Below are positions 19,201 to 58,400 of a stretch of 64,000 nucleotides of DNA, piece after piece (the first letter of the stretch is position 1; every line of letters begins with the position of its first letter). The stretch spans positions 434,001 to 498,000 of the forward strand of contig NW_020845647.1 in NCBI RefSeq assembly GCF_003704095.1, given 5' to 3'. This DNA is from Pocillopora damicornis (Eukaryota). The notes beneath the pieces were generated by a model that was given only the letters and a program-made list of their open reading frames with translations, searched no databases and was not told the DNA's origin. Position numbers and translations under genes: made by a program.

Positions 19201-22200
19201 GTTGAATGAAATAAATTTCGTCGCGACCTTGCTAATGATCATGTCGGGTAGTAAATTAGTTAGGAATTTGTGTAATCTAGACGCAAACCTTGGAGTGTTT
19301 TGGACAGTTTTCATACACATGTTAAGAGAAAATTTCATTTGTTTGTAAATTTTTTCATGTCAAAGGAATTTGAAAAGCACGTTGAAATTGTTATATTGAT
19401 GCCCACATTTGAAAAAATTTCCATTCTCGCTATCACCTTAGAGCCTGACAGAAAAATATGCCTCCTGAGGTAGGAAATTTGAATTGAACACGATCCGTGG
19501 TTGCATCGGTGCTATACAAATAACCTTTGAAAATAAAGGGAATCAGTTTTTTTTTCGGTTCTTGTCCAACATTCAGACAGCCAAGACACAACAGGTGATG
19601 CTCTGATCAATTTTAATTTCAACTCATAATGCGATTGGATACTACGATTTATGAGCTCGGGGAAACGACAAGGGAATAGGGTTGGGGGCAAATTTATCTG
19701 ATTCAGCTGATTTTAATTGAAAGAGGAATACTGGCCACTGTTTGAGGACTGGCAACTAAGCTCAGGTTACAAGAAAAACATTGCATTTTTCCCAGCTATC
19801 TGTCGATAGATATGTAGGCACGGTATATTTCAATGCAAGGAGTTAAAGGATTCAACGCCTACCACAGGAATTTCTTCTAACGACAATGTTTGGATCTTTA
19901 ACAGGTTGTCACCGTTTTTTCAAATTAAAACAAATTTTCATAACTTGTTCAAGTTTGGAACTCTCCATCCCGGTTAATTCTCTCGTTTACAGTTTTATAT
20001 TCAATTTTGATCGTTATCGATCTGCAAGCAACAGCTTAACTAAAAGTTGTGGCTTCCGTCAATTTTGGGGGAATTTTTTCGTATCTCAAGCAAAGAACAA
20101 TTTTAAATGAACGAAGACACTTCGGGAAGTTTCCGTTATGGCTGCAACCATGACTTGGGGACTTAACATGTCAATTTTTGCAGGGGAGAAAAGAATAAAA
20201 TCCTGTCACATGATCCGCAGTCGTCTTCCTCGAGATCTTCTCTTTCTCCTTATCATCGTATTTTCTAAAACTTGCTTTTTTTACAGTAAGCTAAGACTTT
20301 GCCATAGGTAAAATCAAGAGATTAAACAAAATTTTTAAAAAGTTCTCAATGTTCTAGTTTTTTTGTGTTTTTTTTTTTTTAAACTGGTGAAAAGTGTGAC
20401 TCTGTGTTTATCTTTATGAGAATCTAAACGACAGTTTTTCGAGAAATAGCCGGGAAAAGCTTTGTGACTAGCATAACACCGTTTAATCATAACCTCGCCA
20501 AGTACAATATAACTAGACTGTGATCATATATTAACGGTGGAACATGCGACAAGTCGCGTACATACCTCAAGGCTAGTTTCCATTAGGTGTAACTAGTGCG
20601 TTATTTTCCGGAAAATACTGCCTCAGACAAATGGTCTTACCGATTTAAATTCACTTTACATATCTATTTCCGCAAAGCTAAGCAGAAAGATTTACTTCAT
20701 ATTTCCAAAGTTTTAGGAGGTGCAGGAGATAAATGATCGCGTAGTTTTCGCAAATCCCTTGTGGCCTCAGTAAAAGGTTCTATTTCCTGCAGCATATTCC
20801 CTCTTTGTTCAATTAGATGATAAACACATTATAAATATCCTTTGCATTTAAGGTACAATTGCGTAATAAGCTCTCTTATCCCCTTGGAGTCTCCAAAAAA
20901 AAAATTAAGCACATGTTCATCTTTTTTTTTAAAAAAAACCCCTCCCGCTGATCTCACAAATAATTTCGCTGAAACGTGTCATATTTCACAATTTTACGCT
21001 AAGTATGGAAACTCGATAACGCTAGCCTTTCAAAATACATAGACTTAAAAAACACAGCACAAAGCTTTCATTAAGAGATAAGGGCGCTTTTTTTAGCTTT
21101 ACTTTTGCCGGATCTGAACGAAATTAGAAAATTCAGCGACCGGAGATACGTGTGTGCTTAAATACAACGGTTGATGTTGTTTTTCAAAATTTGAAAAACA
21201 TATTTAATGTGCGGTAAACCAATATGAGACTATGACAAAGAAGAACATGGGTTTTTCGCTTGAGCGCTCGGGATGTAAAATAATCATTGAATTAAAGCCT
21301 TCCTTACACTGGCCCCAACATCTTTTTTTCTTTTACCACGAAAGCCTCTTTCCGTACCAGTGATTTTTTCGCCGAAGAATCTTTATTTTTACAACTGAGG
21401 ACTGAACCAACTAGAAATATCGCCAGTGATTGTAAATTTGTCTTACATTGAACTTATTTCGTGTTAAATTTTCGGAGAACGTTTTCTTCTATTGCTCTCA
21501 AACGGTGCAAGGCATCTTAAAAATGAAATGATTTATAATTGGTGTTCAGTTGATAGCTTTGCACCGTAACTTTCTCCTTGAAGTGATGTTTTAAATAATC
21601 GTCGTTGGGGAAAGCTTAATTTCTTGTTTGGGTCGGATGAATAAGCCGGTGAATCAGAAGATAAACAACATTAATACTTCGAAACGCACATCACAAAAAC
21701 AACACAGGATAACTGATTAACAGAAAAAAAAAAAAAAAACCTGTCTTGCAAATTTGCCGATTTTCTTGATATCGTTCTGTTGGCCATTCAGTGCCTTATA
21801 GAGTCTATCGGCTGCACAGAACTTGTTTTACCAGGCATTGCTACGTTTCGTGAAACACAACGAGATAAAAGCCTTAATCTGGCTGATTCGTTTTCTAATT
21901 AATGTTTTCATCGCCTAAGTTCCTTTCCTTCTTAAAGGAAGCGTTGCAATATTAACAGCAGGAAGAAAACAACAGGAAGAACCGGCCATGATGAATCTTG
22001 AACAGAGCGCGGAGACTCTTAGCGAGATAAAACGCTTCCTTAACAAGAATTAAGTTCAGCTGTAATCACCTGTTCATTTATGATTTAAATTTTGGAATCA
22101 AGTGAATAAAAGGCGGTCATTCAGTGCAATGAAGACATCAAAGACCATAAAATAACCTCTGATCAGACTTCTCGGTACGATCGGTTGGCTAAGGCAGAAT

Positions 22201-24769
22201 GAACACCAAATTTTCGTGGATTCTTGTGGCTCTTCTTTTAAGTTCGTTTGTATGTTGGAGTAGCACATTTGCGCCGGGCCAGCATAACCCAAAGATGCGT
22301 TATGGAAAACGACATTTTGTCCCACAATCCAACCGTGCAAATGTAAGTTGATTAATAGCAATGCATGTCGAATCATTTCTTCCAGGACTGTTTTTCACTT
22401 TCAAAATAATTTTTTTTCCCTCTGATTTACATGGAAAGGTCCGCTCTCTTTAGTTTTTTTTTTTTCCTTGCTTGTTTTCAGTTTCCATATTTGTTTGCAT
22501 TACAGGAATACCTCCCTCGAGCATGGCTGAAAAAGTCCGTTGAAGATACTGCAAAAAAGCAGTTCAAGGCACGGCTTGAATGAGGCACGTCATCGGGCGG
22601 AGTTCAGCAATCAGTTATCGAGTTTAAAAAATTGGGTGAACGATTTAGGTCTTACATATTTCTTTTAGAGTTATTTTAACGAATTTATTGCGTAAGGTAT
22701 GAATTATTTTTGTAATCAAACAGTTATAATTAAAAGATAAACCCTGTAAGGCTGACATGGATCTGATGACATAATCATTCACTCATATCTCTATTTCAAG
22801 TGACATCGTCATTAGATTTAATTAGCTTTGATGTAAAAGAAGCAAGAACTTAACGGAATGTTACCTCCGTAAACTAAAAGTATGATTATTGTAATTCTGA
22901 AAAATGACTTTCTCAAATATTAAAGGTCATGTTAAAAAAAATACTCTTTAATAGACACAGTTAGAGCTTAACTCAACAGGGTGATTTTGTTTTACGACTA
23001 GACTCTCACTCAACAAAACGAGTACTGTGATTGGTCGATTCGTCTCGGGAAACACCAGGACTCGAGGGAAAACAAGTGTGCCCTCCCTTAAGTACTTTGT
23101 TATATATTTAGGGACCATACATTAAGTGAATATTGGTTCGACTGTACAAAGTACAGAAAGTTTAACACCAAGCTATTACGCTCCCTATACAACTTGTTGC
23201 CCAATTGAGCGGCGGTTTTGTTTTAAGAATGATTCCGTTTGGACTGCACCGTGATTGGGAGAAAAGTATTCATCCTTACAATAAAAATAACATTATTTAC
23301 AATAACAAATCATTATGATGAAAACAATAATAATGATAAAGTTAAAATTTGACTGAAAAATTATGTTATTAGGACTGAATCAAGAATAAGATCAAAAAGT
23401 AATTTGGCGAATAAATTGAAATTACGAAGACAACCTAACTTAAATTGCACGTAATTAACGGAATGAGGTTGATTACATTTCGTTCATTTACCAATTAATC
23501 ATGTCAATTCCAGAATTCAAGTTAAACTTATCAAAACGATATTCGATGTAGGTACACAATTTTTGTGTTGTGACGTTCGTGAATAGATCGCACCAATAAG
23601 AGCCAATCAGATTGCATCGTCATTTGCTCTGACGAAGGGTTAACGTTCTAAGCGTCCGCTTTGAAACACTTGGCCAATTTACGTCATTAACTCAGTTAGT
23701 AATACCAAATTACCCTGCTATACTCTCTCACCGACGAAGCACCACTGACAGTTTCTTTAGAATCTGAATTACCCCCTCTAACCTCTTGTGTTATAAGTTT
23801 ATTGTTTAATCTTATTTATTGGTACACTTCAGCTGTCCGACTGTTTCTGTTGTGTATCTAATTTACTAGATCCAGAAAACAGTAGAAACTTAATTAAGAC
23901 ACAAGATAGCAGTACACATTTGTAAACTCAAACCTGAAGCACAAACAAAATATGGAAACCGATCAAGTAGCATTCGTCTACAAGAAACCCAAACGGGAAA
24001 ATTTGACAATTTCCTTTCGTTTTAAATCAGTAGTTCCAAACAGCATGTTAAAAGGGCAGGAAAACAGCAGATTTTTACCAGTTTATTCTATCATTCTGGT
24101 TTTAAACCCGAAGATTGATAATTATTGGTTAGCATGAAATAGATAATTGCTAGGAAGATTTCCTTCTTTGTCACATCGATTTTGAAATATCTGCTGATCC
24201 TTGCAATCTGATTGGCCCTCGTCGATGCGATTTATTCACGAATCGCGCCATTTTTTGCTATAAATCTCATCTTATTCCCAGGCAATGAAAAAACTTTACA
24301 AAGCACAGCAACCAATCATTTCAAAGCTTGTGTAAAGAAACTAATCAAATTGCAGGAAAATCAGACACAACTTTTGCAACATTTTAACAACCAGCTTAGT
24401 AATGGCTTAATAAAGTATAGATATCTATAGACATAAGATACTGTTTTTGACCGACTGTGTTTTTTCCATTTCAAATGGATCATGGTAATAGAGTGGCAAT
24501 TGATCTTCGTATCAAACTCGAGCTCTTAGACCTTATTGCACTCCATTCAGTTCAGTTATTATCATTGATTTCTATTCGCTTTTTAACCTTCCGATTTGGC
24601 ATGTCTTGTTACAAGCAGATACAAAATTCATTCACCGTGAAAGGTGAGTGACGCAAAAAAACACCCAAAAAAGTTATCATGATTTTACAAGTAGACTGTT
24701 AGGGCTTTTCTCAGGGCTAGATATCCTCGTAAAACATCGCAGTTTACATAATAAGTATAGGTAAACAAC

Positions 24770-26365: not shown

Positions 26366-26482
26366 ATGAATTCAAAAATGGCTGTCTTGATTTTAGTCAT
26401 TATATCAGCTGCCTTTTTATGCCAGAAAAGTGATGCTTTCGCCGCTGGCTTAGGGAACATGAAAAAAAGAGAATCGAGGGAG
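26366..26482 (+). CDS. Secreted peptide precursor E, first coding exon (second exon unresolved)
   Basis: MNSKMAVLILVIISAAFLCQKSDA/FAAGLGNM-KKR-ESRE, then a perfect donor GAG|GTAAGT, phase 0. Upstream region is homologous to that of F. No private Cys exon was found. Options are the shared exon at 33976-34125 or a short exon at 27158-27178 (VFLDEF*). Confidence 0.85.
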
Positions 26483-30619: not shown

Positions 30620-33600
30620 ATGAATTCAGGAGTTCCCATTCTTCTTGTGGTCTTCGTTTTAGTGGCCGTTTTTTGTCACAAGTGTGACGCTTTTACGGCA
30701 GGAGCAGGAATTTTCAACAAAGGCAGGGACAAGGGAACAATAAGTGAGGTACATAAATGTACAGTTTAGAAAAGCTGATGTAAATGACAATAATTAATGC
30801 TTTTGTCGCTTTTAGTTGGAAGTCTGCTTTGAGCATTGGATCCTTCTTAGATTTAAACGTTTTTCACCTATAAGGTTGAGGAATTCGACTGTTGAGTCAG
30901 TATCGTTTTAAGCAGAATAATGATATTAAAATGTTTGTCACAGAGCTATGCCAAAAGGAATTGCTCGTTTTGCTAATGGCCGCGCCCATTCTTATGTTAG
31001 AAGTTAGCAGGAATAATATGAATTTAAATATTCAAAGATGTTTTCAATCTGTCCTTTAGCCCTGGAGTATGGTTTGAATGGAAAAATAACAAGTCCCGAT
31101 TATGATTCACTTTAAACACCGTTACATTTTTTCAATAATTAGAAATACATTGAACCCTGACCGTTAAACATGCGACGATTGCAAGTAATGATTAGAAATA
31201 AGTTTTACGAAGCATCTCCGTCGAGCCCAAACTGACTGAGACAGTTGATACAACCTACGATTGAACTGAAAACGAAACCTTATATTTTTTGACATCATAT
31301 AAGAAAGAGATTATTCAGTCATCAAAACTATTATTTAAAATTAAAGGGAAGATTCCCACTAAGTTTACTCACAAATTGACTTCAAGTTTAACGCTCCATA
31401 AACAAGGCAATTGAGACTCGATCTCGAAAGCCCTCCTTGAATAGAAAGAATGGGTGTTCAGATCTGTGATACTTTTGTAGCCCCCTTCAGAACCTAAGGA
31501 GCATTATTCGGTTGGATGGAGTTTGGTTAAGCTGAAGCAAACATTACATTTCTGAACCTCTTGAAAACTTTTCAAAAACCCTTTCAGTACAGGAAGTTAT
31601 TACATTTAGTACTTTATCACCATCGAACTCTTCTTTTTATCGTTTACATCACCTTTATAAGGTTGAATAGTGCATTTCTCCAAGCCTACAATATTAAATT
31701 TGATCTTGGAGATCTCAAAAAAAAAACGAAAACCAAAAACATTGACAATTCTCGTCAACAATTCTCTGAGTTGGCACAAAAATGATAAATTGGTATCATT
31801 CAACCAATTTTTTTTTACTTTTTTTTAAAGGAAGAACAACCTAATCACTTGCGTTGTTTCTTTTTAAAATGCAAACATCATATTTACAAGTACAATGTAT
31901 TTATATTTCGGTGTCTCTAAACTTTTTCAAGCAGTAATCAATTTAGTGATTTTAGGCAAAACAGTAGACGTGATTGGGCTTTTGCTGAAATATAAAATCT
32001 ATGAAAGAATAGTTGATAGAAATCCACACAGTATGGAACAATTCAAACTGTCTGTTTTTTCACATTTTGTTTATCTAAACATAAGGAAATGTTGCTCATT
32101 TTACAATAACATAAATATTTAAACATTGAAGATGATGAAACATGTGTTTTCCTAATTCCAAGTAATTAGAAGTTAAATCTGGGTGCTATTGGTGGAGCGG
32201 AGACCAGAATCCGGACGTTAAAAATACTTTTCTTCCATCATTTCCTTGATGTGTATTTCGCCGACGCATTCCTTTCTTAAAGAGACTGTCAGCAAAGCCT
32301 GAGGCTTCTTCTTATTGCAATTGAATTCGTGCAAAGAAGCAATAATTCTCAGATTTGATGGATAAGTTATCTGACAAATCACAACTTCAATATGACGGAT
32401 ATTCCTAAGATTATTCCCTTGCACGACAATTTCCATATGAAGCAGGTGAATCTGAAAAAACTCATTGTCACAGCCAAGTAGTGGGAATAAGAAAATAATT
32501 TTTCCTTCTTCTTGAGTCAGATTATTGTCACAAAGAACTATATTGCACGCATCACTTTTCTCCGGACATACTTTGAAATGATTAAAAAATAAAGTAGTCA
32601 ATTTTATCTCGTTTGTGGCTTAAGGTTTTTCGGCAATCCAATCCTTAAAAACTATTTTGTAACATTTTTTGATAGACATTACATAGACCTAAAATAACTG
32701 CTAATAAGGTTGAAAAACGCGACTCCTGAAAGTCACAGCTTAAGGTCACTGCACGGAAAAGATCAGGCATTAATTCAGGTGTATACTTGTTATTCTTCTG
32801 TTTTTGAGTTCTTTACTTTTCATCATGACACTGATATCGCATCAAATCAAACACTGAACAAACAATTTGTGAAACTGACAGTAACACATATATTTCAGAA
32901 TTAGTTCTAAGAAAGTTAGATTTTTACTTTCTCTACTGGTCTGTTTTATTCACCCTTGGGTAACTGACTTGAAGCGCGTTTGTCAAGAACGATAACAGAT
33001 GTTGCAAAAACAAATTTGAATATAGAAAAAGTTTAGTGGCTTTAACGATAATTTTTTCAAATGCAAGTGGTGAGGGAGGAAGGTCAACCAAGTACGTAAT
33101 TGGTCATAAACTGAGATATTTCTCTCTCAGCAGGAGAACATGATTTATGTTCCCTCAAGAGGATTTAGAGACATGAATCATGAACATGATATGTACTTGA
33201 AACCGTATTTATTTCCTCCATAACAGCTTTCCTTCTGTGACATTACTCTACAACAGATATCTACTTTTTTGGTTCGGCAAAAAAAAAACAGTCATTATCG
33301 GCAAAAGTATGGATTTAAGTTAAAAATATGCATCAGTATTCAGGCAGGAACTGGGGTAATTTTGATTGCTTTAATGCATTCTTTCGGCAACTTGAGTCAG
33401 GCTAGTTATTCAACATTTGAGAGCAAAAAATTTCAGTCCTCTCATTACGAGCAGAGATCAAGTGACTCAGTATTACATGAGTGCCATATGACAATAAGAA
33501 TTTCCCATTGGCCATTGTTTTGATCTATGGACAGCTATCTCTTCAATCCAAAAAGAATTGTAACGAAAAATTGTTTCAGGAAAAAAAAACCAACTCATAA

Positions 33601-34125
33601 AATTAGTCTAATCGATCCACAAATCAATTTCTTTACTATGAAACGTTCTGCACTTGGTTGTATTCGGGTGTAATGGTTCCCATCTTCCCAAGAGGCAAAG
33701 AAATTGGATATTTTTTATATGGGAATCGTTGGGACTAGTTGTGAGGTCAGTCCATTGGACAAAACCCCCTGGCACTTTTTCAGACCTCCCCAACAGTTTG
33801 CACGCGATCCGTGGTACATCTTGGGTGGAGAGGGAAACCTTTCCATTTTTTATGTGAACTGCCGGCCGCGTTTCCCACCCTCTAATATCAGTTTAATGTA
33901 AGCTTGTATAAGTGATAGGGAAAAGTAACAGGGTCATTGGATTGTTCATGTAGTGGTTTTTTGTTATAATTTCAGTCCACCTGGCATCTAAAGCAGCTAA
34001 AGTACATCTGTGAAGCTGCCAAGGTGAGCTGTTCTGAGGTAAACGTGAGAAAGACTACAGAGACCAGGAGTGAGACGAAGGGAGGTGTACCAGACCATGG
34101 CGGACAGGGGATTGGAGACCAGTGA
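30620..34125 (+). CDS. Secreted peptide precursor F (exons 30620-30748, 33976-34125; 92 aa)
   Basis: MNSGVPILLVVFVLVAVFCHKCDA/FTAGAGIFNKG-R-DKGTISE|STWHLKQLKYICEAAKVSCSEVNVRKTTETRSETKGGVPDHGGQGIGDQ*. Donor GAG|GTACAT, phase 0 (a competing A|GTGAGG lies 5 nt upstream). Acceptor AATTTCAG. AATAAA at 34236 and 34271. Exon 2 C-x6-C matches that of H. Confidence 0.8.
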
Positions 34126-48653: not shown

Positions 48654-50794
48654 AAGCGTCATAGAAGCAACATACATTCCCTCAGTACTTCTGTGCTTTT
48701 ATTATCTGATTACAGTGAAGTTCACGGGAAAAGATGTAGTCGCAAGTCCACAATTTATTTACAAACTCCGGCAATCGAGAACAGGTCAGATCCACATACA
48801 CTTCTTAACCTTTGCGCGATACACTGAATTTTTCTTTTTTTCCGACTAAAGAAATAAAGCACAACAAACATGGCGACTCATTCTCCTCGTGTTCGCTCTT
48901 AGACTTCTATGCCTTAAGGGAGGCACAGGCATCCCAACACTAGAATAAGAAATCGTTTTACGAGTGAAAATATTCAATAAAAAAGGTAACGACAAAAGGG
49001 ATGGAAAATTTACCCTCAAACTTAAATACAACCCGTTGGGTTTGTGTCACAGACGCAAACCAAAGTGGCAAAGAACGTTACTGGCAGGTGACAGAGAAAT
49101 GTCTTGGATTTATTGCAGTTAACTGATTCCAGATTTAGAAATGAAACCTCCAGTCCCCAACGAACAGGCATGTATGTGTCTGGGTAACAAGCCTGTGAAG
49201 TCTTAGAAACTCAGTTTCACCAGCTGGGTTTTAAAACACTCAAAAGCATTAACTTGGTGCATTTCAAATAGTTTGGTTCATTTATCTACGATATGAGCTA
49301 AAGATCACTTTCATTTGTTTAACTAACAGGAAAACCAGGATTTTTTCTTCTTTCGACATTTTTCAAGAGCAAGCCTTTAGCAGAATTTTATGGACAGATT
49401 TATTCATGCAACTTGAGTGTTCTTCAATAATCCATTTTCGTGATCATCAGTTGTTTGAAAATACCTAAAAAGAATGTCACAATTACTAAAACATACTTTT
49501 TGTTAAGTCACATTTTTAAATTACAAACAAACTTCATGTTCCCCCGAAGTCTTCTGTTCAAGGATTTTTCCACGATCAAACACTAACTCACAGCGAACTC
49601 AGTTGCGCAAGCTGGCGGAAATTCAGAAGAAAGCAAGCCCATTATAATACAAAAGAACCATTTCGTGTTTATACTTGAATTATAGTTTATAATGATAAAA
49701 TTAATTGCTTGAAAAATTTGCGCAATTGCTGTTGTCTTAATGGACCCCTCATATAATTAAAACCTCCATAAATACCAAAATTAGTAACACAGTTTTCGCT
49801 TGAGCCAGAAAAATACTGCGCAAAACATACAGTCAGCGGATTGGTTTTTGTCGGAGTGGTATTTGTCGGTAAATGTAGCTATTTAATGCAGTAAGTTTGA
49901 TTAAATATAATTTCTTGTAGGTGTTGAGATATGAATTCTAGTCAAGATGAGTTTCTTTTTATTTTTGGATCATTTAAGATTTGATAAAGAGAGTTTTGTA
50001 TTTAAGGTTGAATCGCAGTCTTTCGCCTTATGATTGAACATATCTAAATACTTCTGGAATGACATGAAAATTTGTTTCAATTTCGTTTTAATTTCGAAAA
50101 GCATTGTGTCAAACTGATCGATGACACGGTTTTCGGGGGTATACAATTGTATGAAGTCTCATTTTGTCGCTTTTTATTGATTTATAATGTTTAATTCGAT
50201 TTGCGGCTTCTATACAGTATTTCCTTTGATTTGCACCTCGCCTAAATCATGTTCATAAAAAGCCAGCTAAATTCAAGTTTATTGAAATTAACTTATTAAA
50301 AGGTTAGAGAAGCATTAATTTTAAATAGAGCAAATTGCATAAAGAAAGGAGAGGAAACTTGGAAGAACTCGTCAACAAACAGGAGACGCAAATTGAATAA
50401 AAACGTATTTCCTCTTTGACGGATGTCCAAGGAATACGTGAGCATCAGCGCTTTAGTGGCAAAACTCTGCTTTTGACATTGTTCAACGAAACTATACTTC
50501 CAAGTATAAGTTTTGTCAAAAACCCTTTTAGCTGTAAATCACAACTGAAGGTTTTTAGACTGCAAATCAGACTACGAATTTTTTTACATATTGCAACTTT
50601 TAAAGGGAGAACGTGTTTTGAATGAGTTATTTATGTCTGAAAGGACGGTAACAAATAAACACATTAGGGGCTACTATCAAAGCTTACTTTGAAAATACCG
50701 CCTAATCGCCAGTAAGGTTCCAATCAATTATACCATCGCCAAGAGACTGTTTTCATAAGCTTCACCCCTTTGCATTAAATGAAATAACGTACAT

Positions 50795-51035
50795 TATTTC
50801 CTCGATGTGGGTTTATTAACCTGCAGGTTGTCCATTTTCTAATTGATTCAGCTTCCTTTCGCTGACAGAAGACAACATCACCATCATTACGGAAAATAAA
50901 AGAGAAGGCCACTCTATTCTTTTGAAGTAAGCCATCTCGTTAGCAGTGTTATTAACTTAACGCCTTGTTCGGTTGTCATTTGGCATCGTTTTGTTATTGA
51001 CGCAACACAGGTGGTTTAGCAAACCATTTAAAGGT
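50795..51035 (+). promoter_or_regulatory. Proximal promoter of G, homologous to that of H (53730-53985)
   Basis: Shared GTGGG..GGTTG..ATTTT..TTGA(A)TTCA(G)CTTCCTTT blocks and ATTTAAA boxes at 51025 and 53975. Confidence 0.55.
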
Positions 51036-51117
51036 GCTGCACTATCATGCAGTACTCACAAGAAAATTTGGTTAGATTCAAGCACGCCTTTTTGCCTTAG
51101 GCTAAATTCATCTTAAG

Positions 51118-51240
51118 ATGTGTCCAAGACTCACTGTCGTGTTTTTGCTCGTTCTTGTTGCCGTCTCCATGTTCCCACAGACGTACGCCTTCACTGCTGG
51201 AGCAGGGAATATTGGTAAACGAGGCGAGAATTATTTCCAG
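51118..51240 (+). CDS. Secreted peptide precursor G, first coding exon (predicted FTAGAGNI-amide)
   Basis: MCPRLTVVFLLVLVAVSMFPQTYA/FTAGAGNI-GKR-GENYFQ, then CAG|GTAAAT, phase 0. No private Cys exon found between 51241 and 54000; may splice to 55330. Confidence 0.88.
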
Positions 51241-54069
51241 GTAAATTAAACCACTTAAGATATTTCTTTTCTGGCACCTACCACGTTTTCTTCTTCTTGA
51301 AAATAATTATTTTATCACACATAACACTTTATCATCTTCATCTGACTTACGGCAGGCTCACTCGATCAAACATTTAAGCGAAATAACTGATAACGTATGG
51401 TCACAATTTAACCCTGATCATTAATAGACAAATATCTCCGACAGTCAGGCAGCTAACTTTCACCGTTTAGATTGTCCAAGGCATTACAAATTAACAAAAA
51501 TCCCAGGCCAATTTTTTTTCAGTACTCAAGAGACCTACATGAGGCAAATGTTTATGATCGTCACTTATTTTCTCTGAGTCACATCTGTGATAGACAAATA
51601 ATTTTCATTTCACATATTTGCCATTGTTTTATGTATTTTTAAAAAAATTCTAATTTTCCGCTTAGTGCTTTTTCACAAATTAAATGTTTAATCCTTTTTA
51701 AGTTACATCAGTAAGCTAATATATGTTAACCAACAGACTGCCAATATTAGCCAATCACATCGCCATGTGCTCTTTTCAATTGAGACATAAAGTTAAAATT
51801 CCATAGTCATAAAGCGAGCGAAATGCTTCGAGCCATCCATTTCTGACTTCGCTTTCAGAGATAAAAGAAAGAATTCTCATTTTTTTAGTTTTGTCTTTTA
51901 TCAAAGAACGAAGAAATTAGAGCCACGACAAATTGACGTTTCAAACATCTCCCCTGTATTGTTTCATTAAATAAGTAAATTTGATTACTATTTCCTTCCA
52001 TACGTGTCGGTCAGTTTGGCTGACTGAAAATTATACAATTTGCCCCTAACGAGATAAACCATCTGGAAAACTCGCTGGTCGTTGAGACCACGGTAACATT
52101 CATTAACTTGCTCTGTTTCCAGTGAACGGATAAATTACTGAAACTAGCTTTCACTGATGTCAAAATTTAATTGTCACAAAGAAGTGTTAAAAAAGATTGC
52201 TTGATATGGTAATGAAAGTCATACATACGTAAACCGCCGCCTTCTTCGTGTGCAGGAAATGCATCATGCTCTAAGCAATAACTCAGTATTGAACATCGGT
52301 GACGGAAAGCGGAAAGTCACAAGATATCTAACCATTCAACCAAATTTTGGCTATTAAAGCAATACTCAATTAGCTGATTGATAAGTTGTTGATGAATTTT
52401 ACATGCCTCCGTCTTATTCTTCTGCTGACAGCTAGGCAGTTTTGCTTACTCTCCAAGAGGAAACTGGGCACGAGCTTGCGTTACCAAGATTTCTTAACCA
52501 GAACTATATTAGGAAGTGTATTTGTATGGGAAGGGTTCCATCGAAAAATAGCAAGAAAACAAAATCGTAATTAACCCTGTCGGTTTTTTTACTTTCTTTA
52601 AGAAAATCTTGGCCGCTACCGTTATTTGCATTTTTGGAAATGGAAAAGAGGTCGATTTAAGGGCGAATAATTTCAAAAATTGAAAGAGCGTCTCAGAGGT
52701 TGTAGCATCGTATGAAATTCGGTGCTTCATGGGATAAAACTCACTGAGATATTCACCATTGCATACGGCCAATTTCGTGGCTGGCAAAAGCGCTAGTGAG
52801 CCCTTACATTCTTTGTAAAATTTTTGATTTTTAATATCGTGTGTTTCCGAGAATTTTACCACTATCGGGCTAAATCTTTGAGAGAAAGATAGGGTACGAC
52901 CTATATTTCGATAACTCAGCACCAAAATGTTTTCAGTTTCCTGTAACCAATAATTAGTTCGTCAGTTTTTCGATTCGAACAACATCAGCCTCAGGCGTCA
53001 AAAGTCATTAAAGTCTCTGCATTTGTCTTGAACGAAGTTGTTGTCGACAAATCATGATATTTCAGCAATAAAAAATATTTGAAAGCTGAAAAATACGCCC
53101 GGAAAAACCATCGGCATCGTCTTTAAAAGAAAAGTGTTAATTCGCAAAAAAAATTAGCTCATTTTTCTGGTGTAACAGATGTTTTTTAAGATTTGTTTAT
53201 TCAAATAAAATGTTCGTTTTGTATCTAAATTGATCAAATTCATATCTCAATTTGTGATAAGTTGAAAACTGAAAAGTTTTGAATTAAATAATGTCACTAG
53301 TGATGTCTAAGCGATGCGTGGGGGACATTTATCACAACCTTGAGAGCAGAAAACGTAAGCAATATTACAATATGTTAACAGTAATTGACGAAAACACGTT
53401 GACTTAATTAATATTTAGACGTATTGAAAATTTAGAGTTACATCTGAAGAATTTCTCTTCAAAGAAAATGTGGCAGAGATTTATTAAGGAAGTCATACAT
53501 ACTTTTCACATATTGGAAATCTGTTTTGAAAAGTTTTCTAAGACGTTAGCTGAAATACTTCCCCATAAAATTCACACACTAGAAAGAATGCTCCCTGTCT
53601 AAAAACAGATAATTCTATTTGGTGTATTTACAAACGTTTACAATTAAATTACTGCTGATATTGTCACGATTCCTTATTCAATTAAACAAAATTATACAAA
53701 CGGCTCTGGAAATAAGTGAATTAACAGCGCATATCTACTTTACGTGGGATAATTTACAGATGGGTTGCATATTTTGTTAGTTGAATTCACTTCCTTTTTC
53801 CTTTTCTTTCTGTTGCTTAAAGAAGAAAACAGGATCATTTTATCGAGACTGGGGACAATAATAATCTCGTCAAATGTCGGTTATGTTTAATTACCGGTTT
53901 TAATGTGTTATCATTTAGCGTCACTTACTTTCGCCCGCGCGTTACTATCGGCCGGAAAAATACTAATCACCAAATATTTAAAAGCGGTATGACTAAGAGA
54001 GAACCTCAAAGTAGAATTGGATTAAGATACGACAACTCTGTTCTCACTACACCAGCTTTTCAGTCGAAA

Positions 54070-55437
54070 ATGATCTCAAAAGTGCGCGTTTTTTTCTTGC
54101 TGGTTCTAATTGCCGTATCTATGTATCCTCGAACGCTCGCATTCACAGCCGGAGCGGGCAATATCCGGGGTAAACGAGGTGCCAATAACATTCAGGTAAA
54201 ATGTTCCCAGTATTTCCCTTCAGCATGCCAACCTTCTTTATCCACTAGGTCACTTAGCCTCATCACGCTGAAGATGTATCGATGTGCAAACTTTTAATTG
54301 TTCGTGGTTTTGACACTACGCTCAGCAAAAGTGAGATTCGCACTTTTCCTATTAAAAAGTCCGAAAAACTTTCTTTTTCAATCATTATTATATTTTTAGA
54401 TTTATTTTGAATTTAATTACTGTGTGGAAAATATCTATTTTTTTTTTTCGGCTACAATGAAATTGAATTATTTCGCTGATCTCTAGCGATTCCGATGCTC
54501 AATTGCAACTTTTGAGTACAGGTTATCAAAATATTACAATCCACAGAATAGCCGGTTTTGAGTTGAATTTGATGCAGATATTCAGTGTCGGAGCAGTCCA
54601 CAGATGTACTTTAAAATAATTTCCCATGAGAATAAACATTTCTTTGTCTAATTTTGAGCATGCGGTTAAAACATCTTCTCATTCCTTTAGCGGGAAATGT
54701 CCCTTTCCCGACCCCTTAATCATAAATTGAGCATGTTATAGACTTCATGATAGATGTCGTATTTTGAAATATTTCTCGATATATCTACATGAAGTTGACA
54801 TTAAATTTAGATGCACTTATGTCTATCAGCACTGCAGGCGAATTCGATAACATCTTAAACACATTTTATCGCAATTATGAGAAACAGTACTTTCACCATT
54901 TGTATTTGTCTTTCTTCTGTTTGAAGTTGAACGAACCGACGGATAAATACTGACCGGGTACAACTGATTTAAGGTACTCGAGTCCTACAGCCAATGACAT
55001 TACGTAAGAAACTAACCTATCAGTTTTCACGATATTAAACTTACAACGCTCGACTGAGAAATTAACAGCACTTCACTTGACTCCAATCATTACTTTTAAT
55101 CAGGCTGTCGAAACGTCAGTCACTTTTATGTCGACAGTTCCTCCTGGACGAGCGGACCACTCAACCAACTACAACTCCTTGGTTAAAATGTTTATTGAAC
55201 CATTCTAATTCAAAACAATTTACCATTATTATCAACTTTTCAGTGTAGATGATAACTTCCGCTCAGAAGCTTCAAAACATTTACTAAGTATTCGCTGCGG
55301 TTCAAGTTCAATTATTTCATTTTTCACAGGCTACCTATCACCTCCGCCGAGTTTGCGCGACAGCGCAGTCCGCCTGCCAATCCTTGAGAAAAAAAGATAC
55401 AGCTTTTCACCAGATGGACCAGTCTAACGAACAGTAG
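54070..55437 (+). CDS. Secreted peptide precursor H (exons 54070-54195, 55330-55437; 77 aa; predicted FTAGAGNIR-amide)
   Basis: MISKVRVFFLLVLIAVSMYPRTLA/FTAGAGNIR-GKR-GANNIQ|ATYHLRRVCATAQSACQSLRKKDTAFHQMDQSNEQ*. Donor CAG|GTAAAA, strong acceptor TTTCATTTTTCACAG. TATTTAAA at 53975 and AATAAA at 55608. Confidence 0.88.
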
Positions 55438-58400
55438 AAAGTCACAGGAGCTTCAATTTGCCTTCTGAGCGAATTTTGTAGAAGACGGCGATAAAACCAG
55501 GATCATGAATACTCACCTTTACCGTAATTGTAGTGTTGTAGAAAGCAAGGACTCTAGATCAGTAACTAATAGATAATTTATTTCACAAACTGTAAAAAGA
55601 ATACTGAAATAAACATTATGTGCACCCGAAAGTTATTCAGTTTGTGCGAGGAATTTAAATAACAATTTTTGCAGGCAAAAATATAACTATCTGAGAATAT
55701 TCCTGTTCAGTGCTGGTTCGATTCTCATCGTCTCACAATGTTAAAAAAAATGAAATTATGACCAGGAGTATTGCTAATCCTCCCGAATTGAAAAATATAT
55801 CAAGGTAGATAACAAAATCTTCCTTTCCAAGAACACAACAGAATGACTCGGCCAGGAGAATAGAATCAACCATACAAAAAATGTTCTGAAGGAAAACTGG
55901 GACCGCGATTTTTACGCGGTGGTTGAAATACATACATGTATGGGTTCTAATCAACACAGCGGTCAAAGGTTTGCGCATGCGAAAATGTTGTAAAGATTAG
56001 GTGCCTTTAGGCTGTCGGAACAAAGTTAGCTCAGACGAGTTAAAAACCACCACATAAACCAGTAAGTTACGTTGTTTTAAAACCGTGTAAAGTTTTCGTG
56101 AAAGCTCAAAACAGAATAGCAAAACAGAACACCCGCAATTGAATAGGTTTTGTGTTCAATAAGTTTCCGTTGCTTTTCCGTGTCCCTACTTTTGTTCCCT
56201 TTCATTTATTCTAGGAACGTTTCAACTTTCTTTCGCTCGTTTCGCAAGACAGAAGTGGTCTCTTATGTTTTCCATTCAAATTCAAAGCTGAAAATTGGCG
56301 AGCAGCCGCCCAGAATTGATCCCCTCGCGCAAGCTCGATGTTTGATTGCTGTGTTGTTCTGATCACGGTTTCGGAGGCAGAGAGAAGCATTATGGGCGAA
56401 ATGCGCCCAGATTTCTAAATTTGATAGAGTCGTATTTCATCGATTGTTCGTTTTTCAAGGATCATGTCATAAACAAAATTGATTTTTTTTATTTCTTTTG
56501 TTCTTTGTTTCTTTCGCCGGTTCCTCTTACAAGTACCGACGTCTCTAGCTCAATTCATGTCAGAAACATCTCACTTGTGAAGTCAATAAAAAACAGACGA
56601 AGCGAAGCTTCATGATTAATTTTGTGGCTGATATTTCCACCACATTGTTTCAGCGACAGTTTTTAGTCAAAATAGCTATCAATACCCATTGATGGTGAAT
56701 CCAGCTTAACTCTTTAAGGTACACTTTTGTTCAATTGATTAATGCAGAAAATTTGAAGCAATTTTTTAAAGAGTTTTTCGTTTTTGAATCGTCGAAAATA
56801 TTGGCAAACTTGAGGTGACATCTTTAGGTAACATGAACGCAAAAAACTGACAACTTTAAAAACAACTTGGCACCCTTTGCAAAATGAAACCTTTGGTTAT
56901 TAAATTATTAATTTTCTTTCCGGATCTTAGTAAATTGGTTATAATGAAAAACAATTTTTTGACGCAATTATTAGGTGTAAAGCGCCATATTTATGAGAAA
57001 TATTTAAAAAACAAAGCGAAAAAAAAAACCATGGTTGTTTTATATGGCTTTCGGGTCGTAGGAGGGTAAACAGGCAGACATACATAAATCGGTATTCACT
57101 CATTATAAAAGGAATGTTTACTTCACCAGGTTAATAAATCCAGAATTGTGCATCTGTTTGCTTTCCAAGCTATAGTCACATAAAAACCAGAAAGATCCCT
57201 TAAAAAAAAAAAGCCATTGGATGTACATTTCCTTCTTCGGAACATTAGCACCTTAACGTGAGAAAATTACTGGTTCTTGAGAATGGTAATTTATCTGAAT
57301 ACGAAACACGCGATCAAAGCACAAATCTCAAGCAACAACACGGCATCTTTATTTATTGCCCAATGTCACCTCACTTACATGTTTGTTACATGTACAATTA
57401 GAATTTTGGTGGAAAAATTAAGAAAAGCTCTGTAAAATCTCTGACTTATTTGAAAATATCGCCAGTTAATGCACGCTCGCAACAACAAAAACCCCTTTCC
57501 TTTACCTTCCGACAAATTACGAAAGAAAAAACGACAAGTGTCGGCAATGCTTGTTACGATGTTTACAGTGCGGAGAAAACTCAAGTGTTTTAGGAGGGCG
57601 CCGCCCGAGATATTTGTATCTAAACATCTGCTTCTTTTAAAGTGGAAAACGTTTCGGTTTGTTTCGCCAAACAAAAATACGCCCTTGGAAACCACGAAAG
57701 AAAAGGTAAGTTGAATGGATAACAATTACATTTCAATGAAATTCAAGACAAAATGTCAGATACAGAAAATTCATTTTAATACATCAAGAACCGGCGAGCT
57801 GAATTAAGTAAATACCATAATGATAATGAAGAAAAAGATTTATCAATATCTTTAGGCGGCCGAACGTATATTACCTTAACCAGATTCAGATTGGAAAACT
57901 AGTTAAGGCTGTCAATGAAGTTGTTAACGAAGGGCGGACTAATGTTATTTTCCCGGTAACTCCAGCACAATAATTCAGGTATATCATTGTATCACATTGA
58001 AACACGCGAACTGGACAAAGTTACGAATATGAATGCCAAAGCGATAAGGAAAGTATTCACAGCTGTTTGCCGCTTTCATCTTCTACCTTGTCCGATCCGC
58101 ACAGATATTTGCAATTCCTAATGAGGCTCGGTGAAAGACGCAATTACCTTCGAATGTTTTCACTATGAAAGACAAAAACTATTACTAATCGCTTTAGTCA
58201 CATCGAGGATTAAACCACAACTCCGCTTACAGCAGAGATCAACGACGGCTAAACTGAAATAAAAGCCGAAACAGACTTGACTTGGTTGAAAGTGCGATCG
58301 CCATTTGCCTACGTTACCAAAGAAAGGTGAGGTAGGATTCGATACTTAGCTTGTTTTGCTCCTGACTTTCTCTCCAACTGTGATCGCCGAGATCCAATTT

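Follow-up and report, generated by a model that had tools for sequence, protein, structure and literature searches.

The coral Pocillopora damicornis carries, within a 64,000-nucleotide stretch of DNA (NCBI RefSeq assembly GCF_003704095.1, contig NW_020845647.1, positions 434,001 to 498,000 of the forward strand; hereafter the window, in whose whole-length numbering all positions are given), a cluster of predicted short peptide precursors featuring an FTAG motif. Two FTAG first exons of this cluster, termed G and H and both on the plus strand, lie ahead of one last exon, and we consider it probable that they are duplicated first exons of a single peptide-precursor gene, both spliced to that last exon at 55330 and likely transcribed from two separate promoters, with predicted precursors that have a disulfide-loop peptide in common but vary in the short amidated peptide at the N-terminus. 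A preliminary description of this DNA had proposed that two first exons serve one last exon; assembled transcripts bear this out for G in seven of eight sequencing runs, and for H in a single contig of one run.

Exon layout and transcript evidence

First coding exon G (51118..51240) opens with an ATG at 51118 and spans 41 codons, which encode a predicted signal peptide, an 8-residue FTAG peptide (51190-51213) and a G-K-R site, and ends at the donor CAG/GTAAAT after 51240. First coding exon H (54070..54195, ATG at 54070, 42 codons) repeats this order with a 9-residue FTAG peptide (54142-54168) that carries one extra Arg, again followed by G-K-R, and ends at the donor CAG/GTAAAA after 54195. A hydrophobic stretch follows the ATG in both exons, as judged by hydrophobicity scan and inspection, and two features noted earlier hold on re-examination: both donors (CAG/GTAA in each case) are in phase 0, and the predicted peptides differ by one Arg. 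The common last coding exon (55330..55437, plus strand) is preceded by a pyrimidine-rich AG and encodes 35 amino acids, among them a 12-residue C-x6-C stretch (55351-55386) flanked by the basic sites RR and RKK. Its 3' untranslated region (UTR) runs from 55438 to 55631 and features an AATAAA at 55608, and a poly(A) tail after 55631 is seen as loose runs of A in contigs of runs X5 and X11. Contigs from several runs also have loose ends that match 55009-55125 and 55953-55983, which suggests short dispersed repeats there.

That G and H have only one cysteine-bearing exon between them was likewise borne out. Neither tblastn, blastn nor a hidden Markov model (HMM) of eight last exons found a last-exon homologue in the gap between G and H (51241-54069; best in-gap match E 4.5, on the minus strand), where the sensitivity of the HMM is incomplete: it gave two divergent last exons, near 4573 and near 9493, no better than E 0.25. 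Searched together with its 3' UTR, the last exon has a single match in G000, and H used as a query returns H and G only.

Of 22 available runs, all consisting of assembled contigs, eight from as many studies were aligned, two of them recorded as RNA and six presumed to be so. It is important to note that contig depth does not rank the parts of a gene, so that depth ratios are rough, and that assembled contigs drop rare junctions and cannot show transcription starts. A GT..AG joint from 51240 to 55330, skipping H, is present in seven of the eight runs and as many studies, at depths of 80 to 3866 (X10 3866, X1 2273, X5 1134, X12 2305, X11 1583, X14 80, X15 2975), with at least 31 letters on the short side of the joint in X10 and X15 only; the remaining run, X8, is without contigs for both G and the last exon. 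In X12, position 51071 is the first that the high-depth G contig covers, although contigs cannot prove a start. G is thus neither silent nor endowed with a detectable last exon of its own in 51241-54069, the two outcomes that the preliminary description had named as fatal to its proposal. That G and H are separate genes, with a last exon for G alone either in the gap or somewhere else, would agree with cluster members A, B and F, which have own last exons, and with an acceptor-like site at 51523 that opens a 39-amino-acid frame with three cysteines; for the dominant transcript, however, this is refuted by the joint to 55330, no joint to 51523 being seen in any of the eight runs, and the gap holds no last-exon homologue and G000 no second copy, which leaves the idea scarcely credible.

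For H, the corresponding GT..AG joint from 54195 to 55330 is present in one run of eight, X12, as one 452-nucleotide contig at depth 6.24, in which 53771-54192 is matched with 0 differences and followed by 30 letters of the last exon. By contig depth, H use in this run would be about 0.3% of that of G (6 vs. 2305, a rough figure). Several observations weigh against our interpretation of H as a functional first exon. The joint rests on one contig of one run, its short side of 30 letters falls below the 31 asked, and its depth is near intron background; unspliced contigs cross the H donor in X1, X5, X8, X11 and X14; H is uncovered in X10 and X15; and the 5' end of the H contig, at 53771, lies some 235 nucleotides upstream of the expected start, so that a G-initiated pre-mRNA could be its source. 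The missing H joints are weak evidence, because assemblies drop rare junctions, and the lack of cover in X10 and X15 does not prove that H is silent. In X1 and X8 depth steps up near 53100-53260, from 5-9 to 16-32, which could reflect hidden H transcripts or 3' bias, contig depth being undecisive between the two.

H might alternatively be used in another way, either as an internal exon entered at an in-frame AG at 54064 (G-H-last) or as an unspliced, stand-alone frame of 75 amino acids with two cysteines of its own. The acceptor-like site does lie in frame 6 nucleotides before the H ATG, the H frame reads on into the intron for 33 codons that include the two cysteines, and the NCBI Pocillopora meandrina model P0001, to part of which the 42 H residues are 100% identical, fuses G with H. 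Against this, a G-to-H joint is absent from all eight runs, and the read-through is stopped after 3 codons in five of 15 alleles and loses a cysteine in two others, with a stop allele at 54208 also in X8. We therefore reject the read-through frame as a stand-alone gene, since it is broken in alleles, and regard either form of use as very unlikely; the three-exon form, for which the eight runs offer no joint, could still occur at a low level. The P0001 model itself joins G to H, 5' UTR and exon alike, and leaves out the last exon, a structure without read support.

Selection, promoters and a second lineage

If transcripts of H are scarce, the sequence of the exon is nevertheless constrained. 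Between G and H, 22 of 32 synonymous but 17 of 88 non-synonymous sites differ (pS 0.68, pN 0.19; Fisher p 1e-6), for a synonymous divergence (dS) of 1.8, a non-synonymous divergence (dN) of 0.22 and a dN/dS of about 0.12; codons 24-36 hold 7 synonymous and 0 non-synonymous changes, and the introns of the two exons no longer align to each other. Variation of H was read from the 15 listed alleles of a 50-member protein cluster that covers H and its flanking frame (40 members read). Among these, 0 of 42 H positions vary vs. 15 of 86 in the flanking frame (p 0.0016, one start-codon artefact dropped), a comparison in which bias is possible in that the cluster was found through H and cut at 90% identity. 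The two differences within the H exon among those listed from reads, at 54135 and 54192, are both synonymous, and in none of the 15 pairs compared does FTAGAGNI show a non-synonymous change.

These comparisons bear directly on the possibility that H is a duplicate in decay or silenced recently, and that its rare joint is splicing noise from G pre-mRNA through a leftover donor. The transcript record of H (one run of eight, about 0.3% of G depth, two runs without cover, and a contig that begins upstream of the expected start) would fit such decay, as would the longer coding-sequence branch of H (0.34-0.36) relative to G (0.18-0.24). However, the 15 listed alleles lack amino-acid variation while their flanks vary, the listed read differences are synonymous, the promoter is strongly conserved, and rare junctions are dropped by assembled contigs. 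We consider this account quite unlikely: judged by the G/H dN/dS of about 0.12, the 42 invariant residues beside varying flanks and a promoter kept in a second lineage, H is not debris, and both G and H are under purifying selection.

The second lineage comes from a metagenome scan, in which 336 pattern matches yielded 13 related loci that we infer, from identities of 49-78%, to be coral DNA. One of these loci, L010, presents the whole layout: a distal first exon with its ATG at about 5272, whose peptide is two residues longer and followed by GKR; a proximal first exon at 10001 with the 8-mer, again followed by GKR; and a single last exon at 12378 that is 48% identical over 25 amino acids to the exon at 55330 and has basic sites at the same places around its Cys loop. 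No last-exon match lies between the two L010 first exons, and the 3' UTRs of the two loci match each other weakly (E 0.04) at collinear places. Two non-coding blocks are collinear with those of the window, namely 51953..52041 between G and H (plus strand), which corresponds to L010 8042-8134 (E 7e-4) and to L007 153-322 (E 2e-8), and the intronic block 54455..54539 downstream of H (plus strand), which corresponds to L010 10772-10858 (E 0.002) and L007 2921-3008 (E 7e-6). Loci L007-L009 provide further proximal-type and L011-L015 further distal-type exons, with a GT donor wherever the contig reaches it. Codons for the peptide and its cleavage site show 0 non-synonymous changes in all 12 within-type pairs, and outside these codons the distal type is weakly constrained (pN 0.06-0.16, pS 0.06-0.18).

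The claim that G and H have homologous promoters stood in part. An 85-bp block about 340 to 260 nucleotides before each ATG aligns between G (50776..50859, likely regulatory) and H (53713..53797), both on the plus strand, with a z score of 8.4 that none of 500 shuffles equalled, and a TTTAAA box lies at -91 from the ATG of G (51027..51032, an inferred TATA-like box) and at -93 from that of H (53977). Over the proximal 130 nucleotides, by contrast, the alignment of G with H is no better than chance (z 1.0; 98 of 500 shuffles as good). Each finds counterparts in the second lineage: the region -450..-230 of G aligns to all seven G/H-type loci tested there (z 5-20), and the likely proximal promoter and 5' UTR of H (53840..54069, plus strand) align to all three proximal-type loci at z 21-24, as against z 3.6-13.8 for distal-type loci, whereas the proximal DNA of G leans toward the distal type (z 4.2-9.9 vs. 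3.6-4.9 for the proximal type). With the conservation of the H promoter as indirect evidence, we infer a separate start site for H, which would lie about 60-70 nucleotides before its ATG and be used in few cells or in unsampled stages.

Together, these data point to two first exons with one last exon in L010, a likely coral, and they support the view that the G/H layout is not a recent accident; conservation across lineages is the real argument against accidental exon loss. The simplest and most likely origin is one old duplication of promoter plus first exon. In L010 a non-coding block is itself duplicated (2567-2744 and 8080-8252), 2-3 kb upstream of both first exons, which implies that the duplicated unit extended well beyond the promoter. 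Conversely, a number of points weigh against our interpretation: L010 is the one locus of the 13 long enough for the whole layout; the short peptide is distal in the window and proximal in L010; the -450..-230 block of G scores higher against proximal-type than distal-type loci; and trees that include promoters group G with H at 93/93 and 86/89 (unstarred, with long branches). A tree from coding DNA only places H with the proximal type at 58/70, and in topology tests, from whose trees D and E were omitted, alternative arrangements are not rejected (approximately unbiased test, p 0.06-0.18). Two independent duplications and gene conversion are possible alternative origins.

The remainder of the cluster

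In all, eight first exons and five last exons of the FTAG family are clearly recognisable in the window, together with two divergent genes near 3960 and 8790. A single last exon at 33976 lies downstream of three first exons, C (22199), D (26366) and E (30620), so that the repetition of the layout within one cluster, which had been offered as an argument against accident, does exist as sequence. As an argument it is weak, however, since only a single D/E-type first exon precedes the last exon of the related locus L019, and two complete gene models of D/E type stand side by side in Oculina. Unlike G and H, these Oculina neighbours carry different C-terminal halves and are therefore complete genes with no common exon. 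Whole-gene duplication followed by loss of a last exon is, in view of both L019 and Oculina, a possible origin for D and E. Upstream of D (26366-26482) and E (30620-30748), whose last exon would span 33976-34125 on the plus strand, the DNA is homologous (z 24); neither exon has a G-K-R after its FTAG-type peptide, D ending in KKR without Gly and E showing a different basic pattern. No last exon of its own was detected for C (22199-22342, plus strand), which with D and E may use 33976 in a possible three-to-one layout.

On the minus strand, gene F (45012-44881 and 43688-43608) features an FTAG exon, two GKR sites and a likely last exon of its own, and is divergent from G/H, while genes A and B (16267-15405 and 13843-12908) are tandem, complete two-exon precursors with cysteines in both exons and GKR in the last. 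The two divergent family members (about 3960-4680 and 8790-9600, plus strand) lie in a segmental duplication, 3165-4790 vs. 7987-9709, at 88-94% identity. Five kilobases downstream of the peptide cluster, 60911-63571 (plus strand) encodes in a single frame a class C G protein-coupled receptor of 886 amino acids (ANF_receptor, NCD3G, 7tm_3); the 4.5 kb that follow the last exon in L010 showed no counterpart.

Predicted products and relation to known systems

By analogy with general prohormone processing, signal peptidase would cut each precursor before the Phe, a site suggested by the family alignment, and a convertase would cut at KR, the exposed Gly becoming an amide, to give an 8-mer ending in NI-amide from G and a 9-mer with the extra Arg, ending in IR-amide, from H. 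Cuts at RR and RKK would release the common 12-residue Cys-loop peptide. The products would then act as secreted signalling peptides, the variant being chosen at the level of the promoter. That the FTAG peptide is the most conserved part of the precursor makes it likely to be an active product, and G, H and both first exons of L010 retain the GKR site. On the other side, the amidation Gly is missing in family members D, L016, L018 and L019, so that amidation is not family-wide.

This last point also bears on the possibility that the first exons supply signal and propeptide only, the common Cys-loop peptide being the sole active product, with an antimicrobial, venom-like or signalling role, and the extra Arg being of no consequence. 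Nematostella ShK-like2a/2b, discussed below, offer a precedent in which the prepro-part alternates and the mature peptide stays the same; family members differ at the end of the FTAG peptide; basic sites surround the Cys loop in both lineages; and the very deep G contigs resemble those of bulk-secreted products, contig depth being a poor measure of expression. Yet FTAGAGNI is invariant across lineages at a synonymous divergence of 0.5-0.7, where the Cys exon retains just the 48% identity noted above, and GKR persists in all four first exons, so that we hold the propeptide-only account to be unlikely. A bolder and decidedly tentative proposal is that the locus represents a peptide-hormone family of Anthozoa, as yet undescribed, whose ligand is selected by an ancient promoter switch: G would encode an abundant amidated octapeptide, and in a rare cell type or at some larval stage H would yield the version extended at its C-terminus, each released together with a common disulfide-loop peptide, the switch being kept across distant coral lineages and C/D/E perhaps forming a three-way version.

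Apparently highly transcribed, the anthozoan peptide family of which the locus is a member is without a Pfam entry and labelled hypothetical; the locus supplies exact candidate peptides for coral peptidomics and receptor screens. It would also exemplify compact ligand diversification in which, rather than the whole gene, the promoter and peptide-bearing exon are doubled and one co-peptide is kept. The one gene model found for the locus, P0001, merges G and H and has no last exon, and annotation-based single-cell work could as a result miss or misassign both isoforms.

A profile search returned 47 proteins at E<=0.001, two of which (P0003 and P0033) are long and apparently unrelated. Among ten looked up, four are named relatives, from Oculina (KAL9974153.1), Acropora (KAK2565991.1), Stylophora (PFX16928.1) and Exaiptasia (KXJ21785.1), and all are hypothetical or uncharacterised. 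Like the window gene, these unnamed anthozoan FTAG / C-x6-C precursors of 68-84 amino acids combine a signal peptide, the FTAG motif, a basic site and a two-Cys stretch, and Pfam gave no significant match for the exons or for eight full-length relatives. FTAG is absent from the 10 searchable files of the 11 in the supplement of PMC7523074, from the Nematostella mass-spectrometry table of PMC11087051 (the matches shown in 12 of its supplement files are all receptor sequences), from the five supplement files of PMC6756747 and from the supplement file of PMC12225738. The last of these papers, like its preprint, describes an abundant, Anthozoa-specific, Cys-bearing short secreted protein in coral larval neurosecretory cells, which may or may not belong to the FTAG family (PMC12225738). 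In the literature searched the FTAG / C-x6-C family was not found and is apparently undescribed, although unseen supplements, Hayakawa 2022 and subscription papers may describe it.

Among known peptides, the single-copy Antho-RNamide, Antho-RIamide, Antho-KAamide and Antho-RWamide precursors come close, in that one peptide directly follows the signal sequence and is itself followed by G-K-R, and three of these families also begin with Phe, as the available passages report (PMC7523074). The FTAG peptide nevertheless differs in sequence, the Antho peptides being longer, and ends in NI or IR rather than RN, RI, KA or RW. In the same passages the phenyllactyl peptides of the Antho families are given as not found in Scleractinia, and alternative first exons are not reported for their precursors (PMC7523074).

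The closest counterpart to the gene layout is Nematostella ShK-like2a/2b, where two alternative first coding exons with their promoters precede common downstream exons in a layout conserved across species, and the mature peptide is identical in both isoforms, the prepro-part alone changing (10.1101/2020.05.28.121442). The G/H gene likewise has two 5' exons, each opening with an ATG and a signal-peptide-like stretch and ending at a donor in the shared phase, and one downstream exon. ShKT domains contain six cysteines, whereas the G/H gene has two in its last exon and no significant Pfam match; going by exon structure, it is thus a gene that works like ShK-like2a/b but does not encode a ShK peptide. 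Unlike in ShK-like2a/b, moreover, the alternative exon of the G/H gene holds the most conserved, predicted mature peptide. Alternative first exons are therefore a known class of mechanism, and the new part at this locus is that they would vary the predicted ligand itself.

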